DNA of 63,832 nt from Candidatus Omnitrophota bacterium (GCA_015231405.1 JADGBR010000017.1:1651-65482); one strand, 5' to 3'. Shown: positions 8,625 to 62,500, counted from the stretch's first letter. The notes: generated by a model not told the origin, from the letters alone. A program made the numbers and translations.

Positions 8625-8746
8625 CGTCATTGCGAGCCAATCTCTATAGGGATTGCTTCGTCGGCCTCTGGCCTCCTCGCAATGACGGTCGTCTCTCGCT
8701 TCTCACAATGACGGTCGTCTCTCGCTTCTCGCAAAGACGACGTCAC
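8625..8746. repeat. Nested-palindrome repeat (GTCATTGCGAG family), copy 2, with a 26-bp tandem duplication of its right end
   Basis: CGTCATTGCGAGCCAATCTCTATAGGGATTGCTTCG...CCTCGCAATGACG, then AATGACGGTCGTCTCTCGCTTCTC[A/G]C x2. It fills the whole spacer between two co-directional genes. Confidence 0.85.
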
Positions 8747-31775: not shown

Positions 31776-32759
31776 ATGGAAAATGTCCTATACAAGCTCG
31801 AAACTTACCTGAAGAAACAGATCTCACGAAAAGCTTTTCTGAAATTCGCGCTGGGGGGATTGACGCTCTTCATCGCGAACAACCGGTTCCTGAAACTCGC
31901 CTTCGCGAAAGCGGAGGATTCGACCGGCAGACCAAAGAACAAGGTCAAAGGTAACTACGACCTCGTAACGGCCGAAGGGCCTGACCCGTATAAAAACACC
32001 GTCCAGGCGGTAGCCGCCCTCGGCGGCATGGAAAAGTTCGTCAAAAAAGGCGCCGTCGTCGTGATCAAACCTAACATGGGCTGGGACAGGACCCCGGACC
32101 AGGCCGCCAACACAGATCCTATGGTAGTGGCGGCTCTTGTAGAAATGGCCTATCAGGCGGGCGCAAAAAAGGTGACAGTGTTCGACGTCCCCTGCAACGA
32201 CGAAAGGCGATGCCAGGAAAATAGCGGCATAAAAAAAGCGGCGGAAGAAAAAGGCGCCAAAGTCACGTTCGTCGACCATTGGAACGTCGTTAAAGCCAAA
32301 TTCCCATATAAGAGCGATATGGAGAACTGGCCCATACTCCGCGACGCCGTGGAATGCGACACCTTCATAAACGTTCCCGTTCTTAAGCACCACATGCTCA
32401 CGGGTTTAACGCTCTCGATGAAGAACCTGATGGGAGTCTGTTCCGGGACCAGAGGCCTTATGCACGTCGGCATCGACAATAAGCTCGTGGACATCACCGA
32501 TTTCATGAACCCGGACCTCACTGTCATCGACGCGACCAGGCACCTCACAAAGAACGGTCCGAGCGGCGGCAACGTGAAGGACGTAGTGACCATGAATAAA
32601 GTCATAGCATCGACCGACCCGACGCTCGCCGACATCCACGCCGCGAAACTCGTGGACAAAGACCCGATGAGCGTTCCATACATCAAGGCGGCCGTGGCCA
32701 GGAAATTCGGCATATTTGATCCCGCGTCGGCGAGCATACACGCGCTCACATCCGTATGA
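31776..32759 (+). CDS. DUF362-domain protein with a Tat-type signal
   Basis: 327 aa. The N-terminus is SRKAFLKFALGGLTLF and the DUF362-like core is VVIKPNMGWD...VPVLKHH. Confidence 0.7.
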   Translation: MENVLYKLETYLKKQISRKAFLKFALGGLTLFIANNRFLKLAFAKAEDSTGRPKNKVKGNYDLVTAEGPDPYKNTVQAVAALGGMEKFVKKGAVVVIKPNMGWDRTPDQAANTDPMVVAALVEMAYQAGAKKVTVFDVPCNDERRCQENSGIKKAAEEKGAKVTFVDHWNVVKAKFPYKSDMENWPILRDAVECDTFINVPVLKHHMLTGLTLSMKNLMGVCSGTRGLMHVGIDNKLVDITDFMNPDLTVIDATRHLTKNGPSGGNVKDVVTMNKVIASTDPTLADIHAAKLVDKDPMSVPYIKAAVARKFGIFDPASASIHALTSV

Positions 32760-34261
32760 AGAAGCTGGTCCTCACGCGAAAAGCGTCGCAGATGGTCTTT
32801 TTGGGGCTTTTCGTTTATATTTTGTGGTCCACGACGTACCCTCTTAAGGGCTTGTTCCCGTCAGACGCCTTCTTCAAGATCGACCCTTTGACGGTCATGT
32901 TCACTTCCTTAAGCGAAAGGGTATTTCTCCCGGGATTTATTATATCGCTCCTTATGTTGGCTCTCACCCTCGTCTTTGGAAGATTTTTCTGCGGATGGGT
33001 CTGCCCTCTGGGGACATGCCTCGACCTCACGGCTTTCGGAAAGAAGAGAAAGACCGTGCTCCGGGAAGCAGCGGGAGAGCGTATCCGGCGAATCAAGTAC
33101 ATCGTTCTTGGGACGATCTTCCTCTTCGCCGTTCTCGGCGTCCAGTGCGCGTGGGTGTTCGACCCGATCGTCATCGCCGCGCGGTTCGTGTCGCTCAACC
33201 TGATCCCATGGGTCACGATGGGAGTTGAAAGATCTATGGTCTTCGCTATCCAAAGGTTCGATCTCTACGGCCCTTTCTACGATCTTTACAGGGACCTTAG
33301 ATCGTCTTTCCTCGGTATAAACATAAACATGCCCGAGAACTCCGGAGTGATCTTCGCCTCGTTCGCGCTCTTACTTCTCGCCTCCGGCCGTGTCCCACGC
33401 CTTTGGTGCCGGACATTATGCCCGCTCGGAGCTCTCTATTCCCTCCCCGCGAAACTGTCGCTATTGGAACGGCGCTCCGAAAAGTGCACGCGTTGCGGGG
33501 TATGTTCGAAAAATTGCCGTATGGGCGCCATCAAGGATACCGGCGCGTACAATAAAGCCGAATGCGTCCTTTGCATGGACTGCGTTTATGACTGCCGGCC
33601 GGGCACTTCTTTCAACTGGCACAAGGCAAAACGCCGGGACAGAGCCCAGGCGAAAGACGCCCGGGGGATGTCGCGGAAAGATTTTCTTTTATTCTTCATT
33701 ATTCCCCTCGTAGCCGGCTTTAAGAACAAGGACGAAACTGCCGGAATGCCGGATATCGGGCTCATTGACGCCGCGGTGATACGCCCGCCCGGAGCCCAGA
33801 ACGAGAAAAAATTTCTCAACCTCTGCGTAAGATGCGGAAACTGCATGAAAGTCTGCATAACAGGGGCACTGCATCCGGTAATGTTCGAATCGGGGTTGGA
33901 AGGGCTCTGGTCGCCGCGCCTGGTCCCTGAGCTCGGTTACTGCGAATACAATTGCAACCTCTGCGGGCAGGTCTGCCCAACGGGAGCCATACCGTCCCTC
34001 CCGTTACCGGAAAAGAAAAAACAGATACTCGGGCTCGCCGTAGTCGATAAGACCATCTGTTTACCCTGGGTCAAAGGCAAGGACTGCATAGTATGCGAGG
34101 AACACTGCCCCACGCCGGACAAAGCCATAAAAATGGAAATTGACACCAGCGGCATCCGCCGTCCGATAGTTGATAAAACACTCTGTATAGGCTGCGGGAT
34201 CTGCCAGACCAAATGCCCCGTCCGGCCGCAAAGGGCGATACGCGTTATACCGACCGCTTAA
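32756..34261 (+). CDS. Membrane polyferredoxin (NapH-like N-terminal half plus multiple 4Fe-4S ferredoxin motifs)
   Basis: 501 aa. FCGWVCPLGT, WCRTLCPLGAL, then CTRCGVCSKNC, CVLCMDCVYDC, CVRCGNCMKVC, CNLCGQVCP, CIVCEEHCP, CIGCGICQTKCP. It has a 4-bp overlap with the DUF362 gene. Confidence 0.85.
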   Translation: MKKLVLTRKASQMVFLGLFVYILWSTTYPLKGLFPSDAFFKIDPLTVMFTSLSERVFLPGFIISLLMLALTLVFGRFFCGWVCPLGTCLDLTAFGKKRKTVLREAAGERIRRIKYIVLGTIFLFAVLGVQCAWVFDPIVIAARFVSLNLIPWVTMGVERSMVFAIQRFDLYGPFYDLYRDLRSSFLGININMPENSGVIFASFALLLLASGRVPRLWCRTLCPLGALYSLPAKLSLLERRSEKCTRCGVCSKNCRMGAIKDTGAYNKAECVLCMDCVYDCRPGTSFNWHKAKRRDRAQAKDARGMSRKDFLLFFIIPLVAGFKNKDETAGMPDIGLIDAAVIRPPGAQNEKKFLNLCVRCGNCMKVCITGALHPVMFESGLEGLWSPRLVPELGYCEYNCNLCGQVCPTGAIPSLPLPEKKKQILGLAVVDKTICLPWVKGKDCIVCEEHCPTPDKAIKMEIDTSGIRRPIVDKTLCIGCGICQTKCPVRPQRAIRVIPTA

Positions 34262-37200
34262 GCGGCGACCATGGTCCGGAGCGATTGGAGGTATTCCTGA
34301 TAACGTTCTTCCATATCCAGCGATATCTTCCTTACCGCGGGCAGGATGACCAGCCACCCCTCGCTCCCGGCCTTCTCCCGGACATCCATCGCCAGCCTTA
34401 AAGCCATGGCGAAAGAATATATCGCCTTTTCCATGCCGAAAACGACGACGGGCACTTCCATTTTGCGTGAAAGTCCGGCAAGCCTTTCCGGGTCTTTTGT
34501 GGCGCCCTTAAAAACGCCCAGGATCTCACGGGCGCCGCGGGCCCTGGATATTTTTATGAGCGCCCTGACAAGCTCCGTCTCGGAACTTATCTCCTTCCTC
34601 ATCGATACGTCGGAGCTAAGGATCACGACCGTCTCGAACGTAGTTCCGGCGGTCTTTATCATCTTCTCCAATAGGAGCGCGTTCTCGGGGACTTCGGCGT
34701 AAATGACTATTTTTCCGTTACGGAAAATATTATTCTTCTTCGATATAATCTTCATAACGGGCCCGATATCCGTCATAAAAGCGTTATTCACTATATCGTC
34801 CGCGAAAAGTATCATGCTCTCGCCGTCGGACTCATACCCGGATATCTTCTTCTTAACGGAAGATGCTTCCGCGGAATATATGCCTTTCGCGTCCGAGCCC
34901 AGATCCTTGCCTGCTTTACCGAACCCGCCGAAAGCCTCGTCCAAAGCCGCGTCATCATCCGGATACCACGATACCGCGCTCTCATTTTCCGCCGCGATCA
35001 GTGATCCTTCCTGCCCCTGCTGGTCCCTGGCCTGGACGAAAATGACATCCAAAGTTTTATCTGCTCTTCCGACCAGACACCCTTCGATATCCTGCGCCAT
35101 CCCGAGGTCCTTTTCAATATCCAGGGCATATCCCATTATCCGCCTGAGTATCCCGTCAACCGAGCCGTCTTCGGCATCGAATATATCGTTCGAATAGTCC
35201 GCTTCCTTCTCGACGAGCCTCCTTCCCTCGACCACTATCTTAAGGTCCTTGTTGGCGAAAGCGAGCCTTCTGATCTCTTTGGTCAGCCTATTCACCGCGA
35301 ACCTGTGGGGCAGGCCTTCGTATCGCGTTTTGCCGCTCACGAGCGTCTCGCCCTGCCCCTGGACAAGTTCTATTATCATCTCTTCGTTATCAGAAGCCGA
35401 GGGGTCCCTCGTATGAACGACAAAACCGTAATCGGCGGGTATCAGTTCATGCACAAGGACCGCCATCCTCACGGAATCGTGGTCTATATTGTTCGCTTCG
35501 CGGTCATAAAAAGCCCTGGGATTCCAAACCGACGCCCAGACCGCTTTTACGTATTTATCGATATCGTCCAGATCTGTCGGGTCGATCATCCCGTACGAAT
35601 CGTATAATCCCGCCCCGGCATAACCGAAAAGGTCCTCGGCGTTGGTCGAAGACCTGAAAAAGACAGGTTTATCCCCTACCTCGCGCCTTATGGCCTCGCT
35701 TATGTCTTTAAGCGTCTCCCTCGGGATCGTGAGCCCTTTTATCTTCCGCTGAACAAGCCTTAAAAGGATGGGAATATCCTTTTCCCCTGCGGTTCTCAGT
35801 CTCGAAGAAAGACCGCGTATCATCCCCGCCGAACGTTTATTCTCGAAAACACCGAGGATCTTTTCATAGAACCCGAAACCGAGCGCGAGATGTTTGGACA
35901 TCTTATCCCCGCGCGTTATCTCTCCCAGCCTCATCGCCTTATTTCCGACATTACCCGGGCGGTAATCTCCGGGCAAAATTATCCCGCCGTTCGACAGGTC
36001 CGGATCGGGTATCTCAACATAATCTTTCCACTGTATTTTTGTCTCGGCTCCGCCGGACTCGTCACCCTCGGGAACGACCACGAGCTTATTCCCGGCGATA
36101 TCCGCCTCGATATTTTTACCCTGGTACTCCTCAATGATCTCATCCATGACCCTCTCGTCAGGGCATACGGCGAAAGGAACGCCGTACTGCCTGGCCCTTA
36201 TGGCGGGGTGGGATAAAAGGCTGTCTTCCGAGAACACGATTATACCGCCCACGTCCTTGAGAGGAGGACTATCGGCCGGGATATTATCCGCGACGATTAT
36301 ATCGCCCTTCCCGCACATGGCAAGTTCGGCGGGGTCTTTTATCATTTTGAATTTTCCGCGCATTTTCCCGGGGACTACCACCTGCCACATAGAGATATTA
36401 CCCTTCTCCATGACCTTACGTTTTATGTCCTTTAGCGCGAGCGCGAAAAGATAGATGTTGTCCGAACGGAAAATATTCGACGAGAAATTCTCGACCCAAA
36501 TTTTGTCGTCCTCGGAGACATTGATACCCACAGCTGTATGTTCCGCGAGTTCCTGATATCTCCGGACGCCGTGCATGGCTTTCAGGTTAATGTAACGTTC
36601 CATGCGTTTAATGATAGAGTACAACTTCCCGAGGTCCGTTCCCTTTCCGGAAGCCGACATAGCCGCGAGCTCTTTCATCATGTACTCCAAAGCCCCGGGA
36701 TCGTATCCGTTGGCTATGACGTTATTGGAAAGTATCCTTAAAATATCCATGTCCCCGTGTATGTCGTCATAGTTCTTATCCATTCCTGTATACAGCCTAA
36801 AAAAAAGGACCTCGAGAGCGTTAAGAAGCTTCATCCCGGGAAGAGCCGACTGGCCCGGCGAATTGATTATTATTTGTTTCAGCTTGAGCCTGGCCGTGCT
36901 TAAACGGTCAAGGACCTCGATGGAAGGTTTTCCGCCCGCCCGGGAATCGCGGATAGCGCCCTGGATAAACTCCTTCTCTTCGGCCATATTTTCAAGTGAT
37001 CTTGACCACTCGGTGAACATTTCATCGAGTTTATTCTCGTTACCTTCTCCGTAAACTTCCTCAAGAGAGATAAGCAACGGTTCGCAGGCCGCGAGCACTC
37101 TTTCCCTTCGCTCCGGATCTGTTATTCTATCGCTATCGTCGACCGGATAACCCATACGGGACAGCCTCGACTCCAGTGCCGGGTCCGAGCATTCTGCCCG

Positions 37201-40200
37201 GAGCCAGTCCATGAGGACTTTCATCGTCTCAAGCTGCAGCGGCGAAGGCCTGTTATGAATGTCGTTCCGGAGATTTCCTATCAGGCCATCCCTTCTGTCG
37301 CTGCCGCTCCGCGCTATGACCATTTGTCTCGCCTGCTCCCTCATAGTATTCAGGAAATCCTCGTCCCCGAGGGGCATTACTTTCATAAGCTGGCGTTTAG
37401 TCAGAAAACTTATATCGCGTACAGGCAGGAGATTGACTACCGCGTTCCTTATCCGCGGGAGCCTGTCCTCCACGTCCGCCCATGTCCCGAAGCCGACATC
37501 GTCCCCTACCCCCTGGCGGAGGAACCGTAGCGACACTATGATCTTATCGAGAAGCATCTCTCCCAGGACGGGATGGGCGACGGCTTCTTCCACAAAAGCC
37601 TGGACACCGTTCCAGCCGCCGGTGAGCCTCCTGTCCATCTGCTCGCGCACGGCCGGATTTATGTTTACAAGACCGTTCCTCGCCTCGGTAACTACCGCCT
37701 CGATCGAATTTGTCGCCGCTGTGTCCGATGAGTCCGCGAGTCCTCCTTCCCGCTCGGATAAGAAGCCTAAGAAACTGTCGAATTCTCCTTTACGGAGATA
37801 CGCGAAAGCAAGTCTGAACAATTCGCCTATCGCGTCGCTATCGACGCTTTTTGAGGCCATTTCAAATACCGTGTCCAGCGCCATGATGTCGCGCTTCTCG
37901 GCAAGACCGAAAAGGAAACCGAAACCGTAGATCATATCCTCGTCGCTGACCCCGAACCCCCCTCCCAGGCTTTTAAGAAGATCGTAGATCTCCTCGCTCT
38001 TAGTCGCCGGGGTTTTGAGCGCCACCCCCTCGGCTACGTCCAGTATATCGTGTTCCTCCACCGGGTTAACGCCCTTACGCAATCTGTCAACGAGATCGGA
38101 AAGCACCTTTTTGCCCTCGCCGTAAGGGTCGAGCGCCGCCACGGTTATAAGAAATCCCCTGGTCGATTCGGCGATCTGGTTAAACGTCACTTTAAGATAC
38201 GGCAATATCTTTTCGACCAAAGCAGGGGTTATGTAAGACCTGTCATTGGTTATGATGACCGTGAGCGCGTCAATAATATCATTCGTCGATGCGTGCCCTT
38301 CTAAATGCTCGAACATTTTACCTATGATTCTTTCACCGTAAGCTTTATCCGCGCCTTTCACAAATTCGGCGAGAAGAAGCGATACATCCCCGGCCAAGCC
38401 GTATCTCTCCATACCGATAGCCCTTTCCACCAGGTCTTTAAGGTCGGGGGTAAAAAGTTCAGGCCTCGACCGGTAAGCCCCGATATACGCCAGACAAGCC
38501 GCGCCTTTCGTATGCGACGAGCTGTCGACCACGACATCTTCCCTCGGCATATCGTCGTCCAGGAGTTTACGCACTTCGTTTATCATGTCCCTGTCCAATA
38601 GATCTCCCCTTTTCTCGGCCGCTACGCTGAAAACCCGGGCTATATCCTGTTTCTTGAAGGCTTCGCCTTTTTTCATCCCTTCTATCATGTCGAGAAGGTC
38701 GCTCTTTTTCAAATCGCCCGGTTTTTCGACGATATAAGCCTGGCATATTTCCCTGAAACCGAGGTCCGAAACCCTTGACTGCCCTGTGATCAACAGCAAT
38801 TTCAATATTTTATTAAAGAACTTTCTGTCGATGATATCGAAGTTAATATCAAAAGATCCCTCCAAAACATGGTAGACCGATCCGCTCACCCAGATATTCG
38901 GATCGTCGGGAAGATTCCTGTCACCCTTAACATCGAGAGCCGCGGACAATCTCCTTATGACCTCCTCTCTCCTCTCGGGGTACCTCTTAGCGATAAGCGC
39001 TAGGATACGCCCGTAATTTTCCATACTCCTGTAATGTTCGGAATGCAGGGTCGAGAATATTTTTTCAATGATCTTATCGCGGTATTCCGGCTTTTCGGCG
39101 TACAGCCTGACTATCGCGTGGACATTGGCACGGCTATCCATTTTCATCATGAGGGCCCTAAAAAGATTCTTGAATATACCGTCGTCCACCTGGCCTGGAT
39201 CCGCGCCATATATGACGGTATACACTTCCATATCATCCTGTTCATATTTGAGCTCTCCGCCAGATAACGTCATAGTGGAGGCGAGAATATCCATGAATTC
39301 ACGGGCTCTTGCCGGTTTGGCTCCGGCGATCTTCGCTATAGTGTTCTGGACGCGCGTTTTATCTTTACCTATCATCTCGACGTCGTAAAGTTTATCAAGA
39401 ACACGGCTCACCACATTATCACCTATCAGTTCCGGCTTGACCGCGGCTATGTCGCCTATAAGGCCCATGGCCGCGAGGGCCTTGGCTTTATTCACGCTCT
39501 CGAGCATATCGCAAAAAACATTCACCATATTAGGCATTATGAGGTCCGGACGCTTTTTGATTATAAGCGACAGCTTATACGCATATATGCTGAAATCATG
39601 GTCTCCGAGTGACCCCTGTTCGACGAACAATCGGATGAGTTCGTAAACAATGATATGCGGCATCAGGTCCTTTGAGGCGTCGAAGAAAGTCTTGAAGTAG
39701 TCGTATTCCTTCGTTACCTCGTTCCTCAAAAGCTCGAGGTACTCGTCATGCCTGCCGTTTTTAGCCGTAACGGGAATATCGAACTGGACTTCCTCGCCCC
39801 TGGTCGTAAGAAGGCTCCTGACCAATATCTCGCGGGCGTTCCCCGAAAATAACAGATCCGTAAAGAACGTATCACGATAAAACGTTATCACGGGACTTAC
39901 CGCCTCCACGAAGCATTTTTCTTCCGGAGAAAGCTCCGCGTCGAGAATATAACCCTTCCCGTCCCCGGTGAGCGATACTAAACTGATAGCCTCAGCCATC
40001 ATTCGAATGAAGAATATGTCCTTTTTAGAGCGATATTTTCTCGCTTCAGGAATGAAGCGGTAATAAGCCGATATTATTTCGCGCTTTTTCAGCGTTTCGT
40101 CCCTGACGAGAGTATAAATTCCGGACCGCGTTCCGGCGAGATAAGAAAGTGCCATCCGTATCTCTTCGTAGGCCAATTCTTTCATGAGGCGCTTTGGATC

Positions 40201-40476
40201 GCTTCTCAATTGTTCGGACGCCAGGATCTTCCCGTGCCCGTTGAAGAGGATCCCCTTCCCGAAGTATTCCAGTTTCTTCCTGTCAAGTTCGGTATTCTCC
40301 CTGACAAGCCTGGTCTCCTCAAGTTCCTTAAGCCATACTGACCGCTTGAACTCGGGTTCGGCCATGCCGGTCCATGGAGACAGAGTGTCCGCTCCAAGCC
40401 CGAAAGACAATGGTTCGATCAAAAGGGTAAATATAAGTAATGAAGATATTATCTTACGCATTCTTATGGAGCCCAC
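34258..40476 (-). CDS. Giant (2,072 aa) protein: signal/anchor, ~1,200 aa helical-repeat region, PEP-utilizer phospho-His swivel, PPDK_N-type ATP-grasp, and an unknown C-terminal domain
   Basis: The probable start is ATG 40461 (MRKIISSLLIFTLLIEPLSFGLGA). The swivel is GDIIVADNIPADSPPLKDVGGIIVFSEDSLLSHPAIRARQYGVP (His codon 36208-36210). The nucleotide-binding domain has GNKAMRLGE, FFRSSTNAEDLFGYAGAGLYDSY, VWASVWNPRAFYDR, MAVLVHELI, GQGETLVSG and AQDIEG. Confidence 0.85.
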   Translation of the reverse strand: MGSIRMRKIISSLLIFTLLIEPLSFGLGADTLSPWTGMAEPEFKRSVWLKELEETRLVRENTELDRKKLEYFGKGILFNGHGKILASEQLRSDPKRLMKELAYEEIRMALSYLAGTRSGIYTLVRDETLKKREIISAYYRFIPEARKYRSKKDIFFIRMMAEAISLVSLTGDGKGYILDAELSPEEKCFVEAVSPVITFYRDTFFTDLLFSGNAREILVRSLLTTRGEEVQFDIPVTAKNGRHDEYLELLRNEVTKEYDYFKTFFDASKDLMPHIIVYELIRLFVEQGSLGDHDFSIYAYKLSLIIKKRPDLIMPNMVNVFCDMLESVNKAKALAAMGLIGDIAAVKPELIGDNVVSRVLDKLYDVEMIGKDKTRVQNTIAKIAGAKPARAREFMDILASTMTLSGGELKYEQDDMEVYTVIYGADPGQVDDGIFKNLFRALMMKMDSRANVHAIVRLYAEKPEYRDKIIEKIFSTLHSEHYRSMENYGRILALIAKRYPERREEVIRRLSAALDVKGDRNLPDDPNIWVSGSVYHVLEGSFDINFDIIDRKFFNKILKLLLITGQSRVSDLGFREICQAYIVEKPGDLKKSDLLDMIEGMKKGEAFKKQDIARVFSVAAEKRGDLLDRDMINEVRKLLDDDMPREDVVVDSSSHTKGAACLAYIGAYRSRPELFTPDLKDLVERAIGMERYGLAGDVSLLLAEFVKGADKAYGERIIGKMFEHLEGHASTNDIIDALTVIITNDRSYITPALVEKILPYLKVTFNQIAESTRGFLITVAALDPYGEGKKVLSDLVDRLRKGVNPVEEHDILDVAEGVALKTPATKSEEIYDLLKSLGGGFGVSDEDMIYGFGFLFGLAEKRDIMALDTVFEMASKSVDSDAIGELFRLAFAYLRKGEFDSFLGFLSEREGGLADSSDTAATNSIEAVVTEARNGLVNINPAVREQMDRRLTGGWNGVQAFVEEAVAHPVLGEMLLDKIIVSLRFLRQGVGDDVGFGTWADVEDRLPRIRNAVVNLLPVRDISFLTKRQLMKVMPLGDEDFLNTMREQARQMVIARSGSDRRDGLIGNLRNDIHNRPSPLQLETMKVLMDWLRAECSDPALESRLSRMGYPVDDSDRITDPERRERVLAACEPLLISLEEVYGEGNENKLDEMFTEWSRSLENMAEEKEFIQGAIRDSRAGGKPSIEVLDRLSTARLKLKQIIINSPGQSALPGMKLLNALEVLFFRLYTGMDKNYDDIHGDMDILRILSNNVIANGYDPGALEYMMKELAAMSASGKGTDLGKLYSIIKRMERYINLKAMHGVRRYQELAEHTAVGINVSEDDKIWVENFSSNIFRSDNIYLFALALKDIKRKVMEKGNISMWQVVVPGKMRGKFKMIKDPAELAMCGKGDIIVADNIPADSPPLKDVGGIIVFSEDSLLSHPAIRARQYGVPFAVCPDERVMDEIIEEYQGKNIEADIAGNKLVVVPEGDESGGAETKIQWKDYVEIPDPDLSNGGIILPGDYRPGNVGNKAMRLGEITRGDKMSKHLALGFGFYEKILGVFENKRSAGMIRGLSSRLRTAGEKDIPILLRLVQRKIKGLTIPRETLKDISEAIRREVGDKPVFFRSSTNAEDLFGYAGAGLYDSYGMIDPTDLDDIDKYVKAVWASVWNPRAFYDREANNIDHDSVRMAVLVHELIPADYGFVVHTRDPSASDNEEMIIELVQGQGETLVSGKTRYEGLPHRFAVNRLTKEIRRLAFANKDLKIVVEGRRLVEKEADYSNDIFDAEDGSVDGILRRIMGYALDIEKDLGMAQDIEGCLVGRADKTLDVIFVQARDQQGQEGSLIAAENESAVSWYPDDDAALDEAFGGFGKAGKDLGSDAKGIYSAEASSVKKKISGYESDGESMILFADDIVNNAFMTDIGPVMKIISKKNNIFRNGKIVIYAEVPENALLLEKMIKTAGTTFETVVILSSDVSMRKEISSETELVRALIKISRARGAREILGVFKGATKDPERLAGLSRKMEVPVVVFGMEKAIYSFAMALRLAMDVREKAGSEGWLVILPAVRKISLDMEERYQEYLQSLRTMVAA

Positions 40477-40707: not shown

Positions 40708-40959
40708 TCATTTACCGCAAGAACTCGATGACCCGCAAGAACCAGCAGCGCCTTCGCCTTCGGCGGCGGTTCCCTCGCCTTCCGCGGCTGCTTTTTTACC
40801 GGCTTTCGCGCTCGCCGTGTCGGCGGCCTTTTCTCCGCCTTCTCCGGCGCTCGGACCGCAAGCGCCGCATCCCGCGTAAGCGCTAGCGGCCATGAAAACC
40901 GACAAAAAGACCGCGAGGCTTATCCCTGCCAGAACTTTCTTCAATTTGCTCATTTCCAT
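40708..40959 (-). CDS. Small secreted Ala/Gly/Glu-rich peptide with terminal Cys pairs
   Basis: 83 aa. Signal peptide ...AASAYA|GCGACGPSAGEGGEK...AAGSCGSSSSCGK. It has its own terminator. Confidence 0.55.
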   Translation of the reverse strand: MEMSKLKKVLAGISLAVFLSVFMAASAYAGCGACGPSAGEGGEKAADTASAKAGKKAAAEGEGTAAEGEGAAGSCGSSSSCGK

Positions 40960-50567: not shown

Positions 50568-53500
50568 TTACGCCGCTAACATCGCTTCCTTATCATACTG
50601 ATAAACGCGCCTCAGCTCTTCCTCGTCAAGCGGGATGATCGGAAGTATCTTTTTTAGTTTATCGAGCGCGAACCTCACCTTATTGTAATCGCTCCTCACC
50701 AGGGCCATAATGTCCTTTTCATCCAGGTCGAACCCGGATATCGTCGAAACTCCGGCAAGGTCCCCTAAAGTATCGATGGTCTCCCCGATAAAAGTTTTAT
50801 TATACTCGCCGTTAGCTATATGCACCAGCCTTAAACCCAGGAGCGTGCTCCTAATAAGCCCCGCCATGTCCTTCCCCTCGTCGTACATCCCGACAGGGAT
50901 AAGAATGGTGTCCTCCGGATCCATCATGCCTATCCTTTCCATCATGTCGATATTTGAGCCCAGATCCTCGTCCTTGCCGGTGATGAACAGCGTGACCGTG
51001 TTGGATCTCGACGGCACGATATCGAATTCTTCGCGCGTCATGCCGTATCGGGCATAATCCCGGTCCGTAACGGACCCTCGCCCGTTCGAACTATAAAGAG
51101 CCAGTTTCAGGTTAGACCCGTTCCCCGGCTTAAAGGCCGTGAGAAAATCCCGCGCGTTCTCCTCGCCGATAAGGTCCAACTCCTCGACAGGGACCCTGAT
51201 CACTACCGGTTTACGCCCCGACCCTATGACCCGCGGGAGAAAGTCCCGGCTCGAATCGATAAATCCGTCAAGAGCGATACGGTAAAGCTCTCCCGTCTCC
51301 CGGTAATTTTTGCCTCCCGGACCGTAGTTGCGATAAGTCCCTCCTCCTCCTGCATCGGCCGTCTGAACGGCCGCCGTTTCTTTCTTATGTTCATAAACCA
51401 CCGGCCCCGTAACCTCTTCATTAGGTCCCATTCCGGGCAATAAAAGCTGAGTCTGGCGGGCCGCTGTCTGTCCGGGAAGACCGGGTGTTTTGACTTTATC
51501 GCTTTTCTCAGGCATATCGGCGGGCGGCGCGCTTTCTTCCGGTCCCATCCCTGGAAAGAAAAGCTGGGTCGTCAGGGTAGCCGGCTGTTCCGAGGTCACG
51601 GTTGTTTCTAGATACGGTATGACTTCTTCGCGCGTCGCGAGAATATCGATGAGATCCACCAGTTCCCCGTGCCGGAGGTCCCGAATTCTCTCCGTAAAAT
51701 CTTTTATCCCGGCAAATTGTTTTTCGGACCTTTCACGGACAATAGCGGCTATAACTCTTGAAATAAGCCCTTCGTCTGCCATTAACCGCGGGTGTACCCC
51801 GGGGAGCGCGACCCTCAAGGTCTCGGCGAGATCCTCTTCCCGGGCCGTATTGAGGTACGCGGCAACGGCGTCGCTAAAAACGGCGTTCATCTTCCCTCTG
51901 GAGACCGGCTCTTCCCGTTCCGCTATCGGGAAGGCCGTGCCGGTCCTGGCATACTCTTTCTGAAGATAACCCTTAACTTCTTCCACCAGCTCTTTCATCC
52001 CGGGAGGAACGGATATCCAACTCCCCAACGAAGGGTCTATCTCAGCGGCGAACGCTATGCCGAAAAACTTGCGTAAAAGCTGCCTGCCGTCGCCTTTGAT
52101 CCTCTCTCCCCTAAAGTACCTTCTGAACTCCTTCGCGGCCTTTTTGGCACACCGGGCCGCCATCACATCTCCTTTTTCGGACCTTATCTCCATTATCTCG
52201 AATATTTTTTCGCCTACCTCCTCTATGATCCCGTATCGCAGTTGGTCCTTTATCTCGTCCGGTCGTTTTTTAATGATCCCGCTCGAGAATATTTCGTCTA
52301 TCGCTTTATCCCCGCTCTTATAAAAATCATTGAAAATTTTCCAAACGGTTTTTTCCAGGTCGCTTAATACGAGCTCTATCATATATCTTGGCCTGGACCC
52401 TCCGGAGACAGGCCGGCTTTCATGTTTCTGGCACGTTGATAAGACAAAAGCCTTGCCCTTTGGAGGCTCATTGACCCTAGTATAAGCGATATCCTTATCC
52501 AAAAGAAATCCGAACCCGCTGTCCTTGAAAAGCCTTGAAAGGCCGAAGATCTCTTTATCTCCCCAAACCCTGAAATATTCCGTACTCACGGGTCCATACC
52601 TCCCGGTCTTAGTGTCAAACCCGGGCATGCCCGCAAAAGGCCCGCCTTCAAAAACGGCCGGCGCCGGCCTCAACAGGAACCCTTTGAACTCCTCTTCGTC
52701 ATCCATAAGATACGGCGTGAGGATATCGCTCACCGTCATTACCCTTATGAACAGGCTGAACTCGTTCTGGTCCATAGAAAGGTCCTGAGATATCCTTTTT
52801 ATACTCATTCCTTCCCAGGACCCACGGTTTTCGATTATTTCCGAGGCGATCCTCGGCCGCCTTTTCTCAGCGCCCTTCCCCTTGAACACTCCGCGGAGCA
52901 CGCCGTTAATAAGTTCGTTCTTAAGCCTTTCTTTCGGCGCTTCCCTTAAGCAATCGGCTATCGCCCTCTCGATCCTCTCGTTCAAAGCGTCTCTTCTGTC
53001 AGCGCCTTCTATGTATCCGAGAGAATGACCGTTTTCCTTATACTCCTCCTCCAGAAATCCGGCTTCATCCCTTATCAGCTTTTCCATCCGCTCCGGCAGT
53101 TTCCCATACCATTTCTCAAGGCTCCTGTCGACGTACAAAGCGAAACATTTATTGAAATACTGGGTCACGTTCGGCCATTCTTTTTTCATATCCGAGGAAT
53201 GGCTCTTTCCCGCGGACTCAAGATATTCTTCCACCGCTTTTTGCCCGAATATCATTGCCTCCATATTCCCGGACCTCGCCTTCCTGCCCATCGACAGGAA
53301 TACGGCAACGCCGATATTGGACAGTAAATTCATGCGGTTAATGGCGGCGTACGCCTCTTTTTCGAAAACAGGGTCTTTAGCGGCCGGCTTACTGACAATC
53401 CCCGCCGAGAAGAAAGGCCTTTCCGAGTAGACATGTTTCGCCAGAAAATCCTCGTAATTTTTCAGGTGCAAATCCCGGGGATAATCGCATAACATGAACT

Positions 53501-56500
53501 TATAGAGTTTTCTGGACCGTCCGTTCTCCGGAGACATTTGGTCCGTGCCAGCCGTCCCGATAACCACGTCGGCGGTACTGCCGGTATTCGCGTCCTTTTT
53601 CACCCTTAGGAAGCCCATATCTTTATCGAAGAGAAAATCCAATCCCGCTTTCTTAAAAAGACCGGAGGCCATTCGCAGTTCTTCATCGCCTATGATCCTC
53701 ACGTACCCTTCCTCCGGCCCTTCATACGTCCCATTTTCATAGCCTATGACCCCGCTCACCCTTTTTTGCACTTCATCATGGCTGTCGCCGTAGTTGCCGT
53801 CTTCGGCGAACGGCATACCTTCAAAAACTGCGGGAGCGGGGCGTATGTCATAAGTTGCATGCCCTCCGAAGCCTTGGCGAAGAAGGACCGGTTCCTGGCC
53901 GCGGGATCCAGGCCGGCTTGCTTCGTCTCCCGGGAAGACCAGGTAGGGGTCTATGAGTCTCGACCCCTCCAGCGCCATCAGCGTCATTACGAACTCATTA
54001 CCCTGAAATTTTGGCAGCCTTCGTTTAGCGTCTTCGATCCCGGTGAACGGCGTTCTCCGTTTCGTAATTATATCGTTTATCACCTTGTCACGTTCTCCGG
54101 CGCTCTCAAAAACGGGGGCAACCTGTTTTAATATAGGCTTTAGACCGGCCTTCAACTTATCCTCCGGGGTTTTGTTCAGATAATCGACTACGGCTTTAGC
54201 GAAACATGCGTTCACTTCGGCCCTTTTCTCGGCCGTAAATTCCTCATATTTAAGATATTCTTCATCCCGGTAGTTTTCCCTTATGAACGCCGCCAGTTCA
54301 TCCAGAAAACGCGTCATCGACAACGGCACTTTTATCCATGAAGCGAGATCAGGATCGGCGTAAGCCGCGAACGCTGTAGTGAAATACTCCCTGGCACGGG
54401 CCACGTCAAAGCCCCCCTGCTCGGCGACCTTTCCGAACTCAAAGTATAATTTCCTCGCCAGTTTTAAGCCCTTCCTGTTCCGGGGATCATCCAGAAAAAC
54501 CTCCAGTACCCTCGCGATATCGGTAAACGCTTTATATTTTACGAACGAAACCAGGTCAGGAGGAACATCCGTAATGATCTCCTTGAAGCCCAGACCGGTC
54601 AAAAGAGACCCCGGGTTAGTTCCTAACGTGTTTACCAATCCGTCGTAACGCCCTTCGACCAGATCGTACAGGATAAGTTTAGCTATGGCCCTTTCTTCTT
54701 GGGGCTTTCCGGGGGATGAGACAGCGTCCTTAACGACCGATATGCTTGACAAACAGACCTCTTTTCTATCGGCGGCTTTCACGCGCGAATACCCGATGAC
54801 TTTCCGCAAAATAGGGCCGAACCCCTTACCTTCGACCTTAGCCCAAACCTCCCTAAGGGTTCCGTCGCTCATCAGCCTTTTGTAGCCCGGTTCAGGGTCA
54901 TTATACTTACCGTCAAAAACGACCGGGCCTTCAATAAGAGGATTGATCTCGCCACCCGTACCGTAATTCGTGTCCGCGCCAAGCGGTATCCCCTTATAAA
55001 GCACCGGGGCCGGGAGGAACAGGTCACCTGTTCCGGCGCCTCCGCCATCCTCCGGGTTTTCCTGTTCCAGAGCGCTCTGCCACGGGACTATTATCCCTTT
55101 ATCTATAGCCCTGAACGTTAATTCCACAAGGACGTCTTCCGTAAGGCCGCTTTTCCGGGATATACCGTCTATCCCGCTATACGGGCCGTTTACGCATAAC
55201 TTCATTACGGCGTCCCTTCGTTTCGCCTCGTCACCGGATCCTTTGATCTCCTTTATGGCTTCATATAGCTTAGCCACGCGGTCCGGAGCGTGGCCGTTCA
55301 AAAAATCCGTCAGCGTCGACCCGATCGCTTTTATCTGCTCCGGTCCCGTCAATTCGCCTTTTAACGGCAGATAAAATGCGCGGCCGTGCTCCCGGGCTTC
55401 GTCCCGGTAAAATTCCGCCAACTCCTTGAAGAACACCTTCTCCTCAGGGCTAATAGCCCCGGTATCTATCTTCAGGGCGGGATCGACGAATACGGGGAAC
55501 ACGGCTCTAATGAATACCCCAAGGAACTCGTCCCTTTCCCGTACCGACTTTGGCCATGAATACCAGTCCCGTCGCCGTATTCCCGGAGTGTCGGCGAAAC
55601 GTTTTACGGCCAGCTGAAAGGCCTTTCTGGTCAATTTGCCCGCTCTCTCTCCGCCTCTTGAGGCTTTCTGGCTGAGAACGCTGTATACCGCGCCGCCGGC
55701 CTGATACAGAAGTTCATACCGTACCCACGTCTCGAAAGCTTTCTTTTCAGTTTCAGGTCTCCCCCTGACAGCTTTCACGTTCACAAGATGCCCGACATAT
55801 CCACTCCCGCCGTATAGCTTCCCGACAATGGCCTCGTATACGTCCCGGACACAGTCGTACAATATAAGCTTCCCGTCGACCCAAAACTTTCCTCCGTCAG
55901 GCGCCTCACCCGCTAGGAGCGCTATATTCGAAAATCCCTGTACGGGGCCGGTGCCGGGGTTATTTTTTTCCACCCTGGCAAACCCCATGTCATGGTCCAG
56001 AACCGCCCCGAACCCCGCTCCCGACATTAATGCCGCTATATTTTCTATTTCCCCGTCGCTTACCACCCGTACGTATCCGGACCGGCATTCTTCGTAGCCC
56101 CCTTTTGCGGCGTCGAATGGAACGGTCTCGAGCCCAAGGGCGCCTATCTCGGCCGTCATGTTCCCGAAATTATCGTCCGCGGCGAAATCTGTCCCGCTGA
56201 ATAGGGTTCTCGCCGGGGCCATCGCCGGATAGACAGACCCTTCCTGGCCCCTTCTCTTTCCGGTTTTCTCCCTTAATTTATCATAGTCCACCCTCCCCGG
56301 ATTTTCGGGCATGTATTGCCATATCTGGTCGCCGCCCGTCAAATGCCAGACAAGAAAAGGAAGGTCGTTGTGGTCGTAACACTTAAAAACATCCCTGAAT
56401 TCCCTGAACGATGCGAACGGTTTTTTTCGTAATATCAGTTCCACCATATCGTGTCTTAGGGAAGCGTTTCCGTAACCCGGGCATTGCGTCTTAAGCGCCT

Positions 56501-59500
56501 GGTTCAATAAGATCTCCAGCCTGTCTTTCGGGGTATTATTTACAAGTTTCACGAAAGCGCCGTTAAATACCTCGTCTACCGCCATGAATTCAGCGTCTTT
56601 TGTTTTCGGCCGGGATATAAAATACTTTTCCCCGGCGTATTCCCTTCTGACGAATTCGCTCATTCTCCGGAAAACATTGGTCATTCCGGCGGGCATATCG
56701 ATCAATTCCAGGAGCGACGGATCGGCGTATGCGGCGAAACATATGCCCACGAACATTTCCATCCCGCCGGGCGTTTCGGGAATATTGTGTTTTTGCCTGG
56801 CCTTTCTGTATTCGAGCATGATATTGACCAGCAACTGGTGTTTTCTGAGATCGACGGAATCATTGACCGTCAACCTGGATAAAGTCTCGCCTATCTCCCG
56901 GAGAAGTTCGAACCTGGCGTAATCTTCAAGGCTTCGCGGGGTCCCTTTGATCAGATTGCCCTTATAAACATTCCCGTTAAAGAAAGGGATACCCGCACTT
57001 AAGTTATCCACGGTAAATAATTCGTAAAACACTTCATCGGGATAGTCCAGGAGGTTCAGTTTTATCATATGCCTTTTGAACTCGGACTGCCCGTATACGG
57101 GTTCCTGCTCCCCGATGAGAGTGAAAAGTCCCTGATAGTCCTTATTGACCCCTGATCCCCTGTAACCCTTTCCTTTGGCCCTCGTGAACGCTATGGCCTT
57201 ATCCAGAAATACCCCGAACCCGCTTTTATCCACCAGGTCCGATACCGCACGAACGGTTTCGTCCGACACCGGTCTTTTATATCCTTCCAGAGGGGGGTAG
57301 CTGTTGCTTTTTTCATCATACCGTATTTGTTCGACGATGACGGACCCCAACACATTCAAACGCGCCGCGCTATCGGCGCCGTAACTATCATCACGCGCGA
57401 AATCGGAGCCCGCGAAAATCACCGGTGCGGGCTTTAGTTTCGGCGCTTCTTCCTGAGGCCCGGACATGCTCGTCCCGGCGGACCCATTTTTGGGGACTTT
57501 AAGGCTCTCGCCCGCCACCCTGACGATAAAAGACCTGACCTCACGGGTCGTTTCAAGGACATTTAATAACCGGTTAGCGCCGCCTTCCGTCATTACCTTT
57601 ACCAGTTCGGCTTTCAATGCGGAGAAACTTTCGAACGTCTGATTTTTTTTGATGAACACCGAAATGACCCGCTGTCTTTCGCCGGAAACGGACCCCAGCC
57701 CTTTCAATATTCTGTTAAGCTGCTGCTCGAGCCTTGGTGTTTTCTTCATTACGTTGACATACTCAAGTATCCCCCGATCGATCGTATCCCTTAGCTCCCG
57801 GGCGCGGCTCTCTTGGGACAAGAGAAAGAAAGCGCTCCCGTAGCTGTCGCGTTCTGAAGACAGAAAATCCCTTACTTTACCGGGCAGCGGCAGGATACCC
57901 GTATTTACCGGGCCGTCGATCCATTCGGAGAGCGAAGGGTCCAGATGAAAAGCGAAGGCTTTACTGAAAAGCTCTCTCTGCTCCACCCCCTCGACGTCAT
58001 ACCACCCTTCCCGCCTTTTATTAATGCCCTTCGCGAATATACCGCTGATCTCGGACACCAGGAGGAAAGCGGCTATATCGCCTCTATTACCTTTTCGGAC
58101 AAGCATGTTATATATAGTCTCGCCGATGTTCATTAGCACCTTGTATTTTATGATGATGTTGTATGCTTCGCTCGTGAACCCGTCGTCCCTTGTACCCGCG
58201 CGCTTAGCCTTCTTCGGGTTTATTATCGGCTCATCTCCATAAATATTATTTTCGACTATTCTCCGATAATATGCGTCGAAAGCAGCTTTGTCATAATCGT
58301 AAAAGACGAACTTATTTAACTCCCTGCCGCTTCCGTCTTCTTCTTTACCGAATTCTTCCGCGTACACGGCGCTGCCAAAGATGAGCTGCTTCCTGTCCGC
58401 GCCTTCCCCTTTCTTTTTTGCCCTGGAGTAAGCCATGTCTTTCTCGAACAGGAACCCGAACCCGGCGTTATTGACTAGATCCGATATTTCGCCAACAACG
58501 CCGTCCGGCACGGTCCTCTGCCATCCTTCCTCGCGGGAATACTTTCCGCCGGCGAACGTTACGCTTCCGGCGATATCGGCCTTGAGCGGCTCCTCCAGGT
58601 CGCCGTAGTCGGAATCCGACCCGAACGGAACGCCTCCGAAAACGGCCGGGGCCGGGCTAAAAGGATACTTGCCGCTTTCTTCCTCCCCGGATACCCCAGG
58701 CCCTTCGGCTGAAGCCTCTGTCTCAGATTTCCGTTTGGCCTCATTCGTCGCTTCACCCGTTATTTTTTCACTTATACGGAAGGCGTAACCATGCGATTCG
58801 TATTCGTCTTCAAGAAGATCCCGTATCTCTTCAAACAGCTTCGCTTCCTCATCACTTATCCTGGTATATTCCCGCTTCGCGGCCCGGACCTTAAGCATGA
58901 TACCGTCATCTCTTAACGCGTATAATGGGAAGAAGCCGCCCATGAAGGCGTCCTGCCCTTTTCTGACTTTGTCGATATCGCCGGATCCTTCCTTCTGGTC
59001 CGAAACCATGCCGCGATCTTTCACTTTTACCCTCTCGGCGGCACTGTTGAGCCTGTAAATGAGGCCCGTTGCCCTCATATCGCCGTTCTGTGCCTTCGCA
59101 CGCAATGCCTCTAAGATAATACTCCCCATCCCGCGATATAGATCATAGACGATCTTATCCCTCATAGACGCGTTCTCGATGATCTCATCCAACGCGTGTT
59201 CGTAGTTCAGGTATTCTTCGCGGGGATCCTTAATAGCGATATCGTACGTGACTATTTTTCCGGCTATCCGCGTTTCTTCGCCCTCGCCTCTTAACGGCCG
59301 CCGATCGGTGCCGACGTTCACGTATTCCATTATCCTTCCGGCTTCGACGGTCTCTATCTTCTTCCTCAAACGCGAATGGCCTATATCGCGGTCCAGCAAG
59401 AAACCAAATCCCGCCTCCTCCGCCAAAGCGGAGAACTCCATGATCACATCATCGCTTACCAGCCTTACATATCCTTCCTCCGGAGCCTGATAAACCCCTA

Positions 59501-62500
59501 AAAGATCATCGTACAGGGTTGTCGCCGTTCCGTCGGCAAGGTCATCATTAATTTCCGCGAAATCATCCCCGAAAAAAACCTCTTCCACAGGCCTCAGAAT
59601 GTACGTCACTTCTCCAGGCATGTCTTTTTCGGGATTTCCATCTTCAACAACTTCATCTCTATCCTCTTCCATTCCTGTCTCTTTATCTCCGGCAATCTCA
59701 CCTGCCGCGTTTTTTGTCCCGATGCCACCCGTACCGTTCCTGCCCTTACCGTTATCTTTCGGGTTCTTATACCTGTCGACTAGGGACCGCCACGCGTTCT
59801 TAGTTATCTCGCCGTCGTATATGGCTCGCGAATTGAGCGCCATTATGAGTTCCTGTATCTCGGCCCTGTCTCGGTCCTCCTGGACCCGAACGGCGCCGGA
59901 AGGGTCTATATCCATTTCCTGGCATACATAAGAGACAAAAGCTTTTATCCTGTCGTGATGGGCGCTCTCGTAATATGCCTCGTGGGAGAGCACGAGTATC
60001 TTCATGGCCGTAATAAGCTCCGAGTGTTTACCCTCCGAGTCCGTCTTATCTATGAAATATTCTTTAAGCCTTTTCTGCCAATCCGCGGGACGATCTATCG
60101 TTATACTGCCTTCATGCGGCCATTTCACTATCCCCGCCGCCCTTTCGAGCTCGGCTCTTTTCGCCCTCAGCTCTTTGACCTTATCGTTCATTTCCTCGAG
60201 CACTTTGTCTTTGGCTTCTTTACCGTTACTAAGGCCGGCAAGGCGCGCATCCAGCCATTTTAACGTCGAGTCCAGCTCGTCTTTCATGGCCGTGAACTCT
60301 TCCATTAGGGCATCCACCTCCAGAACGTATTCCTCTTGGGCGGTCTGCCTGGCCATCTTTTCGCGTTCGGCCTTCTTTATCGCCCCGAAACGCGTTGCCG
60401 AGGGTATCCTTTCTTTCATGCGAGGAAGAGCGTCGGCGAGGATATCGACGGCCGACTTCCCATTTATTTCTGACAGGTTATATTTAGCGAGCAGATTTTT
60501 TCCGGCCGCCCCGGACGCCTGATCTCTCTTTATTTTCATGAGCTGTTTTACGACCTGTCCGACCGTAACGAATTCCACGTTCCTTAAAAGGTCCTCCCCC
60601 AGCTGGGCCTTTATCTCGTTAAGCTTCCCTGGGTCACGAAGTATTATCGTCAGCTTATCCGGTAGCCGGTAATTCTCGCCTATCACCAGACGCCCGTTCC
60701 TGTCCTTTATATTCAGGTTCCACAGCCTTTCTATGCTGGGTATGTTCATGCCCCTTATATCTTCCCGGCTGTGCATTTTCATCAACCTCTTGTATTTCTT
60801 CACCGTCTCAACGACATCCTCCACGAGTAACCCCCATTTAGTATCCGCGAAGAACATCCCGCGCCTGAAAAGATCGGGATAGCGTATGTCGGTCGTGAAC
60901 GCGTTCACGGGGAACACCTTATTGAACTCCACGCCCCCGTTCTCCCGGGCTCCATATACGGAAACGTAAAGCCGCCAGACCAGCTCCTCGAATATCCACC
61001 CTTTTAAAAAATTGTAGTTCTTTTCCCCGGGATGGCCGTTCCCGTTTTCACTATCCACGGCCAAAAGCCCGGAGCCGTTCTCATCGCCGTCAGGTCGGTG
61101 TTTTTTTTCGCTTTCCGCGCCCCAGGCCGGGCCTCTCGCGTTCCTTCTCGTCCGAGCCGTGCCTTCCTTCTTTTCGGATTCTTTGGTTTCGACTACGGTC
61201 TCGTCCTTGTAAAGTTCCCATACCACCTGTTCGTCGTTCCTCTCGTCCCGCTCTTCCGCGTTAGGCTCTTCCTTCCTGATATATATCTTTGCCCTGTATT
61301 CGTTCTCGTCCACGCCAAGTATCTGGACAAGGACCCTCCGGCCCTTCGCGCTCTGGTCGTTCTCCATCAGGTGCCCTCCGCCCATCGTCAGTGTGCCGTT
61401 TGCCGGGACGGTGGTGCCGATATAAAGCGACCCCTTAGCGCTATTAGCGAATATGGCCCCTAGATCTTTCTTGTACACACGGCTTTTTCTCTCATTTCCT
61501 TCATTTCCTCTGGCGAGCCTCAAGCCCCATTCGTCGAAAAGCTCGGAATCCCTATAGATATCAAGCGCCAGAAAATTCCTCAAAAGTTTTATTTTACGGC
61601 CATGCTCCCCGTCGTCCTCCAGATAAAAAACACGGTATTTCGCGCCGTCCTTATACTCGACTAGCACCCTCCTGCCGCGATGATCGTCGGCGTGATATAC
61701 GGGCTCCCCGTAAACGCTTAGATATCCATGTTTTGAGACCGGGACTTCCGCGACCAGATAGCCGTATTTGTCAAGGTCAGCCGGTTTTGTGTTGCGGTCC
61801 TTCTGCGACTTGTCAGGAAACTCCGAGATCTCGTACTCGTCCTCATAGGGGTCGTCCTTGTCCGATATCGAACCCATCGAAGCGTGGACGTAGGTATACA
61901 CCTCCCGGTCTTTCACGAACGCTTTCCCAATGAACTCGCCGGCAGCGTCCGAAGTAAAGATCATCCCGAAAACGGCCTCGAGTAAATAGACCCCGTCTTT
62001 CCTGGAAAAATGTTCCTTTCTGACGTTTTTTTTCTCTTTATCCCACCACTCATATTTTTCGAACGCGCCGAAAGGCACAGCCTTTATCCTTCCGGACTCG
62101 GCCCCATCGATATCTATGACCATATCCGCCGAACCTGACACATTGCTTGTTTCCAGCCGGACATTTACATATCTGTCATCTATCAGCCTATCCAGCATGA
62201 AAGCGAATAAGGCCAGCGGATTGTTCATAAGGTCCTTCACCTTGGTCCTAGGCAGGCTGAACCCGAAATGGCCGCGCCTGATAAGGTCGTGATACCCCCG
62301 GGGTGGAAGTCTCTCTATGTACCCTTTAAGGGTCTTAAAAAGACCGGCGTACCTTGTCCCCTCGGTGAGCTCCTCGACGCGGCTAAGATGCAGATACCTT
62401 GAAAAATCTATATCCTCGTCGCCGAACGCTTCGCGCTGGAATACGCGGGAATAATAGTGTTCGTCATCCGACCGGGCCTCTTTCGACAGGCCTTTTATAC

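Follow-up and report, generated by a model that had tools for sequence, protein, structure and literature searches.

An apparently phylum-restricted C-terminal domain and a shorter shared end motif in large proteins of Candidatus Omnitrophota

A 63,832-nucleotide stretch of genome from a Candidatus Omnitrophota bacterium (GCA_015231405.1, JADGBR010000017.1:1651-65482; hereafter the window) encodes two very large proteins, the products of open reading frames (ORFs) A and B, whose C-terminal tails are the subject of this study. We found that the last ~245 residues of ORF B are a member of a large, unnamed and apparently Omnitrophota-restricted family of folded alpha/beta domains. By sequence comparison, ORF A shares with this family the last ~20 residues and the kind of leader at its N-terminus, whereas no copy of the ~220-residue body of the domain is recognisable in it. 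The sequences thus reveal an undescribed phylum-restricted terminal domain family, together with a shorter and more widespread end motif. We consider it rather probable that A and B belong to one class of "book-ended" modular Omnitrophota proteins, in which the common element is a terminal helix with a free C-terminal Ala that acts as a handle. The positions of both ORFs and of their tails (Table 1), re-derived here, agree with those in the initial annotation of this DNA, and the peptides quoted there are all found in the two translations.

Table 1. Features of ORFs A and B in the window (aa, amino acids)
Feature	Coordinates	Strand	Description
ORF A	34258..40476	-	2072 aa
ORF A terminal segment	34261..34350	-	VILPAVRKISLDMEERYQEYLQSLRTMVAA-stop; last 20 aa fit the family end motif in stop register
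ORF A tail body	34351..35010	-	aa 1823-2042, after the dikinase; orphan, possibly alpha/beta
ORF A dikinase core	35011..36387	-	phosphohistidine domain aa 1364-1467 and PPDK_N ATP-binding domain aa 1562-1822
ORF A N-terminal leader	40318..40467	-	aa 4-53; signal-peptide-like hydrophobic helix, then TLSPWTGMAEPEFK
ORF B	50568..>63830	-	at least 4401 aa, open at window edge
ORF B terminal motif	50571..50648	-	ILPIIPLDEEELRRVYQYDKEAMLAA-stop
ORF B C-terminal domain	50571..51308	-	aa 4175-4420 of window translation; member of unnamed alpha/beta family
ORF B tandem repeats	51609..59606	-	aa 1409-4074; seven copies, the first of 282 aa, the other six of ~350-395 aa
ORF B N-proximal conserved region	63081..63773	-	aa 20-250 of truncated translation

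The C-terminal domain family of ORF B

An exhaustive phmmer search with the ORF B tail against 1.84 billion representative proteins recovered 182 cluster representatives at E<=1e-3, of which 152 remain at E<=1e-10; a word-indexed search with the same tail returned one relative (P0001, 83% identity). We took 148 phmmer matches as the analysis set, and 147 tails, with B and P0001 left out, were used to build a family hidden Markov model (HMM). ORF B matches this HMM with 219 bits (E=3e-69), at 100% in hhalign and with z=31 in a semi-global profile test, and its tail contains the near-invariant family motifs RVPvE, NTxTLF and TILxPvG...DxAGLIRS. The domain, of ~240 aa, occurs as a single copy per protein in the 148 members and is locked to the C-terminus: the match reaches the last residue in 128 of them and stops at most four residues from the protein end in 147. 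The final residue is Ala in 145, with an AA end in 86, and many members end in RA, FA, KA or SA. The consensus of the family end is LLPItPIDaEELRqIYEHAKevliAA-stop, which can also be given as ...LKKLIKLLPITPIDAEELRQIYEHAKEVLIAA-stop; ORF B, which ends in ...MLAA, fits it fully, its terminal motif scoring 28.9-40.3 bits when anchored at the stop codon. All family members that carry a taxonomic name are Candidatus Omnitrophota, and the 11 genome loci of the family are likewise all from Omnitrophota metagenome-assembled genomes (MAGs), four of them labelled "uncultured Planctomycetia", with three copies in one MAG.

No known family was recovered with these tails. In hmmscan searches of both against Pfam-A and NCBIfam at E<=10 no family was retrieved, the C-terminal domain of the type IX secretion system (T9SS) and other named C-terminal sorting domains included, and phmmer and profile searches against PDB sequences likewise returned nothing, in agreement with the initial annotation, which had put forward no named family for the tail. 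Its conjecture of an alpha/beta fold also holds for ORF B. The AF2 model of the ORF B tail, computed from a 22-sequence alignment, reaches a predicted local distance difference test (pLDDT) score of 88.4 and a predicted template modelling (TM) score of 0.89, and is predicted to comprise an N-terminal helix, four beta-alpha units, a helical subdomain and the terminal helix. A Foldseek search of the PDB with this model gave nothing significant (best E=0.13, TM<=0.32); the generic, non-significant neighbours were SIS domains and phosphoribosyltransferases (PRTases).

The family is not specific to giant proteins. The initial annotation had asked whether an HMM of the tail would always find it at the C-terminus of very large proteins; the C-terminal position stands, and the size does not. 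The longest member has 4,710 aa and some entries are fragments, the median is ~1,140 aa, most members lie between 0.8 and 2 thousand aa, and members of ~850 aa exist. The regions inserted between the two family ends are diverse and include HD+GT2, glycogen phosphorylase, GT5 starch synthase, deaminase+PHP+methyltransferase, HAD, M48-like, MbnB-like and histidine phosphatase+DUF218 combinations, and in ORF B seven repeats of ~390 aa; nine members of ~800-890 aa that were scanned contain no Pfam domain. Comparison of the window with three family loci of other genomes revealed no neighbour gene in common, the neighbours being housekeeping genes. Gene neighbourhood thus lends no support to the dedicated giant-protein system that had been proposed from the two ORFs of the window.

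ORF B itself contains no Pfam domain. It contains the seven tandem repeats and, after them, the ~250-aa tail, and a jackhmmer search with one repeat unit against B returns domain E-values from 3e-50 to 8e-199. Each repeat opens near "PAPAVFEG.PF" and contains "GFGFLLDKD"; the unit has no Pfam match and was not found in the other representatives of the tail family. Further upstream, aa 20-250 of the truncated translation match 11 family members at their positions ~170-450 (E 1e-29 to 1e-54), which places ~150-250 N-terminal residues of B beyond the window edge. The missing residues (edge at 63773-63832) probably include the leader. A library copy of ORF B (P0122) stops at the same place as the copy in the window.

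What ORF A shares with the family

ORF A opens with a signal-peptide-like N-terminus, continues with a long region devoid of Pfam matches and a glucan-water-dikinase-like core, and ends with ~250 further residues that terminate in ...MVAA. From the 148 family members (A and B excluded) we derived a position matrix of the 20-22 C-terminal residues and applied it in stop-codon register. Its score for the end of ORF A, LDMEERYQEYLQSLRTMVAA, is reached by ~1e-5 of 119,000 windows of unrelated proteins and by 2e-5 of shuffles; ORF A is second only to B among the 238 ORF ends of the window, and lies above every non-family end among 2,316 ORFs of unrelated loci. With the weighted emissions of HMMER, anchored in the same way, the last 20 aa of ORF A score +14.2 bits, a value attained by 0 of 119,377 windows and by 4e-5 of shuffles. 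This places ORF A at rank 18 of 2,816 ORF C-termini: 16 of the 17 above it have the full family tail (15 locus ORFs and B), and the remaining one is an Omnitrophota protein that bears the end motif on a different tail body. The fit is partial, in that the "LP" of ORF A sits three residues upstream of the consensus position, and the Smith-Waterman comparison of the last 40-60 aa of A and B is of borderline significance, with scores that 11-23 of 1000 shuffles attain. The pairing of the extreme termini of the two proteins in the initial annotation is nevertheless borne out by the anchored score, and positional anchoring is a defining property of the family itself.

The anchored test also detects three Omnitrophota proteins with non-canonical tail bodies (L094 7552-9792, L092 1-2730 and L086 3-1541), which indicates that conservation of the terminal helix motif extends beyond that of any single tail body. 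These proteins, and a further one from L093, adjoin family members or share their genomes, and have ends of the form ...LP...E...Y......AA/SA-stop. Two of them, L094 7552-9792 and L093 2213-8068, bear a "type 2" tail (KKIVLALHDNI...YYPLAEI..ITL...FKLIPKSE...RY...FIAA-stop) that by eye looks like that of A; a scan of viral contigs contained no further tail of this type. We considered the type 2 tails as a bridge between A and B and rejected them in that role, as a profile of two such sequences matched neither A nor the family of B significantly in hmmsearch or hhalign.

At the other end of the protein, the family leader HMM describes a hydrophobic helix followed by kLAPplrlsseeFK, a pattern that can be abbreviated to "kL(A/S)P...eFK". 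As the N-terminus of ORF B lies outside the window, the comparison is between ORF A and the family. Residues 4-53 of ORF A match the leader HMM with 19 bits (E=2e-4), the best score among 240 six-frame ORFs of the window; the runner-up has E=0.12, and the other signal-peptide proteins of the window have E>0.1. Of the 109 family members with an initial Met and a length of 500 aa or more, 60 have the L[AS]P motif within their first 130 aa.

Between these ends no resemblance was detected. The ~190 residues of ORF A before the end motif are orphan sequence and not detectably the family domain. No relative of the ORF A tail was found in a word search of 5.8 billion proteins or in metagenome, genome and viral contigs. 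Against the family HMM the tail scores -3.5 bits, and hhalign assigns it a probability of 0.8% on a 23-residue match that is out of register. In the semi-global profile test with the terminal motif removed, ORF A has z=0.18 and is equalled or surpassed by 79 of 200 shuffles, whereas the eight most divergent held-out members have z=23-34. The motifs RVPvE, NTxTLF, TILxPvG and DxAGLIRS are absent from the tail, which reads FETVVILSSD and VPVVVFGMEKAIYSF at the places aligned in the initial annotation. The direct comparison of the two proteins gives the same picture. In BLASTP the best high-scoring segment pair of the A and B tails covers only the last 47 aa (E=0.47), the Smith-Waterman score of the 190-250-aa tails is matched or exceeded by 310-425 of 1000 shuffles, and without the terminal 28 aa the comparison yields z=-1.4; in a MAFFT alignment of the tails the register of the body differs from the strand pairing drawn by eye. 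The by-eye alignment over ~190-215 residues is therefore at chance level, and the claim that both ORFs carry the same terminal domain finds no support on the ORF A side, where the body shows no similarity to the family profile. That A and B are related probably holds in the broader sense of one class; for a domain in common the comparison gives no support. A recent exchange of DNA between the 3' ends of the two genes was also considered and rejected, the nucleotide similarity being no more than for unrelated sequence.

The dikinase core of ORF A and other genes of the window

The core of ORF A has a phosphohistidine domain (PF22973, 5.8e-10, 39.2 bits against a cut-off of 27) followed by a PPDK_N domain (PF01326, 1.1e-32, 114.1 bits, cut-off 27), both above the Pfam gathering scores, and is predicted from these matches to be a glucan-water-dikinase-like enzyme. 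In this it shows the domain order of the glucan water dikinase (GWD)/PWD-like dikinases, phosphohistidine and then ATP-binding, and hundreds of bacterial homologues of the core are named glucan water dikinase by their sources; it differs from them by the addition of ~1,350 N-terminal residues, the leader and the orphan 250-aa tail. All 457 homologues of ORF A that were found are limited to the dikinase region. The nearest of these (36-46% identity; L003-L011) include none with an A-type or B-type tail, and end in other recurrent Omnitrophota tails of the GGIDL and GGIDF types, namely "GGIDL...QNAPGFVPVIINIQP" and "GGIDF..LPIVTQ...ILVVL", or in other ends. The tails of A-like dikinases in other metagenomes comprise two recurrent modules, "GGIDLTPA..LQ...IKFH.D.AML.QLQNAPGFVPVIINIQP" and "GGIDFRNLPIVTQ...EW.EIENLV.SGI.PS.ERIKEY...ILVVL", which were seen in L004 49-5886, L005 2-3640, L006 3-3557, L007 3-3566, L008 2-1972, L010 3953-9397 and P0002-P0007. 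Some of these dikinases bear an N-terminal pattern of their own, "FRLPAPG...LSPEF.P..LKGIKVHP.NPF.FDFILDKGD". These ends suggest that several alternative "book-end" classes exist in the lineage.

A glycogen/starch theme recurs around these proteins. In the window it is represented by the dikinase-like core of ORF A and by a stand-alone GT5 glycogen synthase gene (48194-49702, -) that adjoins ORF B. Among family members, a GT5 starch synthase (P0189) or a glycogen-phosphorylase domain (P0162) lies between the same leader and tail, and locus entry L001 10001-15379 belongs to the same theme.

The remaining genes of the window are ordinary bacterial ones, with products such as histidine kinases, a CheB-CheR fusion, a porin, glycogen synthase, an M48 peptidase and a helicase. 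The stop codons of ORF A and of a convergent 4Fe-4S gene (32756..34261, +) overlap within the palindrome CTTAAG, the plus-strand TAA being 34259-34261 and the minus-strand TAA 34258-34260. Between ORF A and a cyclase gene lies an ORF of 83 aa (40708-40959, -) with a signal-peptide-like start and a Gly/Ala/Glu-rich body between Cys clusters (GCGACGP ... GSCGSSSSCGK). An IS200-like gene (22642-23232, +; Y1 transposase, PF01797) is located between a type II secretion/type IV pilus ATPase-like gene and a phosphate-selective porin gene, and a fusion of CheB methylesterase, CheR methyltransferase and PAS domains (1017 aa, 8743-11796, -) adjoins a 1495-aa multi-PAS/GAF histidine kinase (4119-8606, -).

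A putative terminal handle and alternative explanations

The features common to ORF A and the family may be understood if the terminal Ala-ending helix were a handle read by one shared partner. The family domain caps proteins of ~850 to 4,700 aa, and a signal-peptide-like helix with the "kL(A/S)P" motif opens many of these; under this proposal, the terminal helix would in the canonical family be presented by the four-stranded alpha/beta domain. The carriers of the handle would be many paralogous, N-terminally anchored or exported, enzyme-bearing proteins, and its purpose may be docking, assembly or localisation. On this view the terminal helix probably serves in docking or recognition, and the conserved polar residues in RVPvE, NTxTLF and DxAGLIRS suggest a putative ligand or partner site.

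Several points weigh against this proposal. The function of the handle is inferred, and no partner gene is conserved beside family members; the cargo enzymes need ATP or S-adenosylmethionine, an awkward fit with export behind a signal peptide. The un-anchored local hmmsearch gives ORF A just 2.4 bits, so that the end signal of A rests on C-terminal anchoring, and the statistic for the anchored motif was chosen with the sequences already in view. The leader HMM includes the hydrophobic segment, which inflates its scores for any signal peptide. Finally, two observations hint at a relationship of the tail bodies themselves. The single-sequence AF2 model of the ORF A tail, at a pLDDT of 37.5, alternates strands and helices at low confidence as that of B does, which leaves room for a very remote homology of the whole tails. 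The tail of L094 7552-9792 is weakly similar both to the body of A (z=2.9) and to that of B (z=4.6), the resemblance to B running through a common DMAGL(I/M)RS.

These last two observations belong to the first alternative, that the whole ~190-215-aa tail of A is an extremely diverged true copy of the alpha/beta domain of B. It would account for the end motif that A and B have in common in stop register, for the family type of leader in A, and for the likeness of the two tails in size and in position, each behind a linker. Yet the near-invariant motifs RVPvE, NTxTLF and DxAGLIRS are all absent from A, even the most divergent held-out members remain far from its near-zero z in the profile test, and the HMM and hhalign are equally negative; and the weak type 2 hints run in a register that contradicts the strand pairing of the initial annotation. 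We regard such a whole-tail homology as a possibility of some substance, and still as doubtful.

A second alternative concerns the family domain itself, which might be a ligand-binding or catalytic (regulatory) alpha/beta module that works on or governs the enzymes to which it is fused, with the terminal helix as a mere part of the fold. The near-invariant residues E46, N107/T108/T110, D151 and R157 are predicted by the model to lie at the C-terminal edge of the parallel sheet or at the start of the next helix; the top fold neighbours, non-significant as they are, include phosphosugar-binding SIS domains and PRTases; and many inserts are sugar- or phosphate-handling enzymes. One would not normally expect, however, so strict an extreme C-terminal position and an invariant last Ala of a simple enzymatic domain, the end motif is found on other tail bodies too, and no significant fold or sequence match points to such a role, all of which makes this explanation unlikely to our minds.

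It is also conceivable that the turnover of these large proteins is controlled through the (L/V/I)AA-COOH end as a built-in degron or processing signal. The LAA end of the ssrA tag is read by ClpXP, and non-polar ends are read by Tsp/Prc. The MLAA end of B, the MVAA end of A and the prevalence of terminal Ala in the family would suit such a signal. However, the end is predicted to lie inside a well-packed helix (pLDDT ~90) and not in a free tail, the RA, FA, KA and SA ends of many members do not conform to it, and there is no linked protease gene, so that a degron appears very improbable. Scarcely any credence is due to the last alternative, a chance resemblance of the ends with the A tail as an unrelated, lineage-specific dikinase extension: the weak pairwise and un-anchored statistics, the choice of the A/B pair by eye out of ~50 genes and the quite different tails of the closest dikinase homologues of A would all allow it, but the anchored score of A, which no control window reaches, holds after a ~50-fold correction for selection, no end outside Omnitrophota family loci attains it among the 2,816 ORF ends, and the match to the family leader is independent of it.

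The proposed handle may be compared with several known systems. One parallel is the T9SS C-terminal domain of Bacteroidota (Por_Secre_tail), which is also a conserved extreme C-terminal module on many unrelated, often very large, signal-peptide proteins, phylum-restricted and present in several copies per genome. It is, however, a beta-sandwich of ~70-100 aa, whereas the family described here is a ~240-aa alpha/beta domain with a terminal helix, and the present tails lack any Pfam or NCBIfam match even at E<=10. Cellulosomal dockerins, which dock onto one scaffold, are likewise a common and usually C-terminal module on enzymes with varied catalytic cores; they are duplicated Ca-binding loop-helix modules of ~70 aa that the present family matches in neither sequence nor fold, and no cohesin-like partner was identified here. 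The LPXTG, PEP-CTERM and GlyGly-CTERM signals resemble the end motif as position-locked C-terminal signatures on many cargo proteins of a genome, but consist of a short motif, a transmembrane helix and a basic tail, in contrast to the amphipathic helix ending in Ala-COOH, without a C-terminal hydrophobic segment, of the family.

Within Omnitrophota, giant or long proteins have been described as Archaeovorins and as dockerin-type proteins (bioRxiv 10.1101/2023.11.21.568195; 10.64898/2026.06.07.730766), the dockerin-type giants in the former report. As far as the accessible portions of these reports go, the published giants are similarly long, with an N-terminal signal peptide or transmembrane segment and mixed metabolic domains (starch synthase, HAD, methyltransferase, PPDK-like); they centre on proteins of at least 10 thousand aa and of more than 30,000 aa, as against the smaller size of most members of the present family, and the same portions do not describe the C-terminal domain, the AA-COOH end or the "LAP" leader.

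A further, more speculative extension is that a phylum-specific sorting or assembly pathway of Omnitrophota reads two features jointly, the "L(A/S)P" leader and the Ala-COOH amphipathic helix that the ~240-aa alpha/beta domain usually presents. Such a pathway would bring dozens of paralogous enzyme-bearing large or giant proteins per lineage into one envelope or intracellular structure, with A, B and the type 2 tails as its cargo classes. We hold this joint scheme to be distinctly unlikely as a whole.

For the window itself, the outcome is that A and B have in common only the last ~20 residues and, probably, the leader. For the phylum, in which the handling, localisation and function of very long proteins are open questions, the terminal module provides a search key, position-locked, phylum-restricted and present in more than 180 clusters, for a whole class of proteins that extends well beyond the giants. 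It ties glycogen and sugar-phosphate enzymes (GT5, GT35, GWD-like dikinase, HAD, histidine phosphatase) to one architecture, and makes the idea of a shared recognition directly testable.

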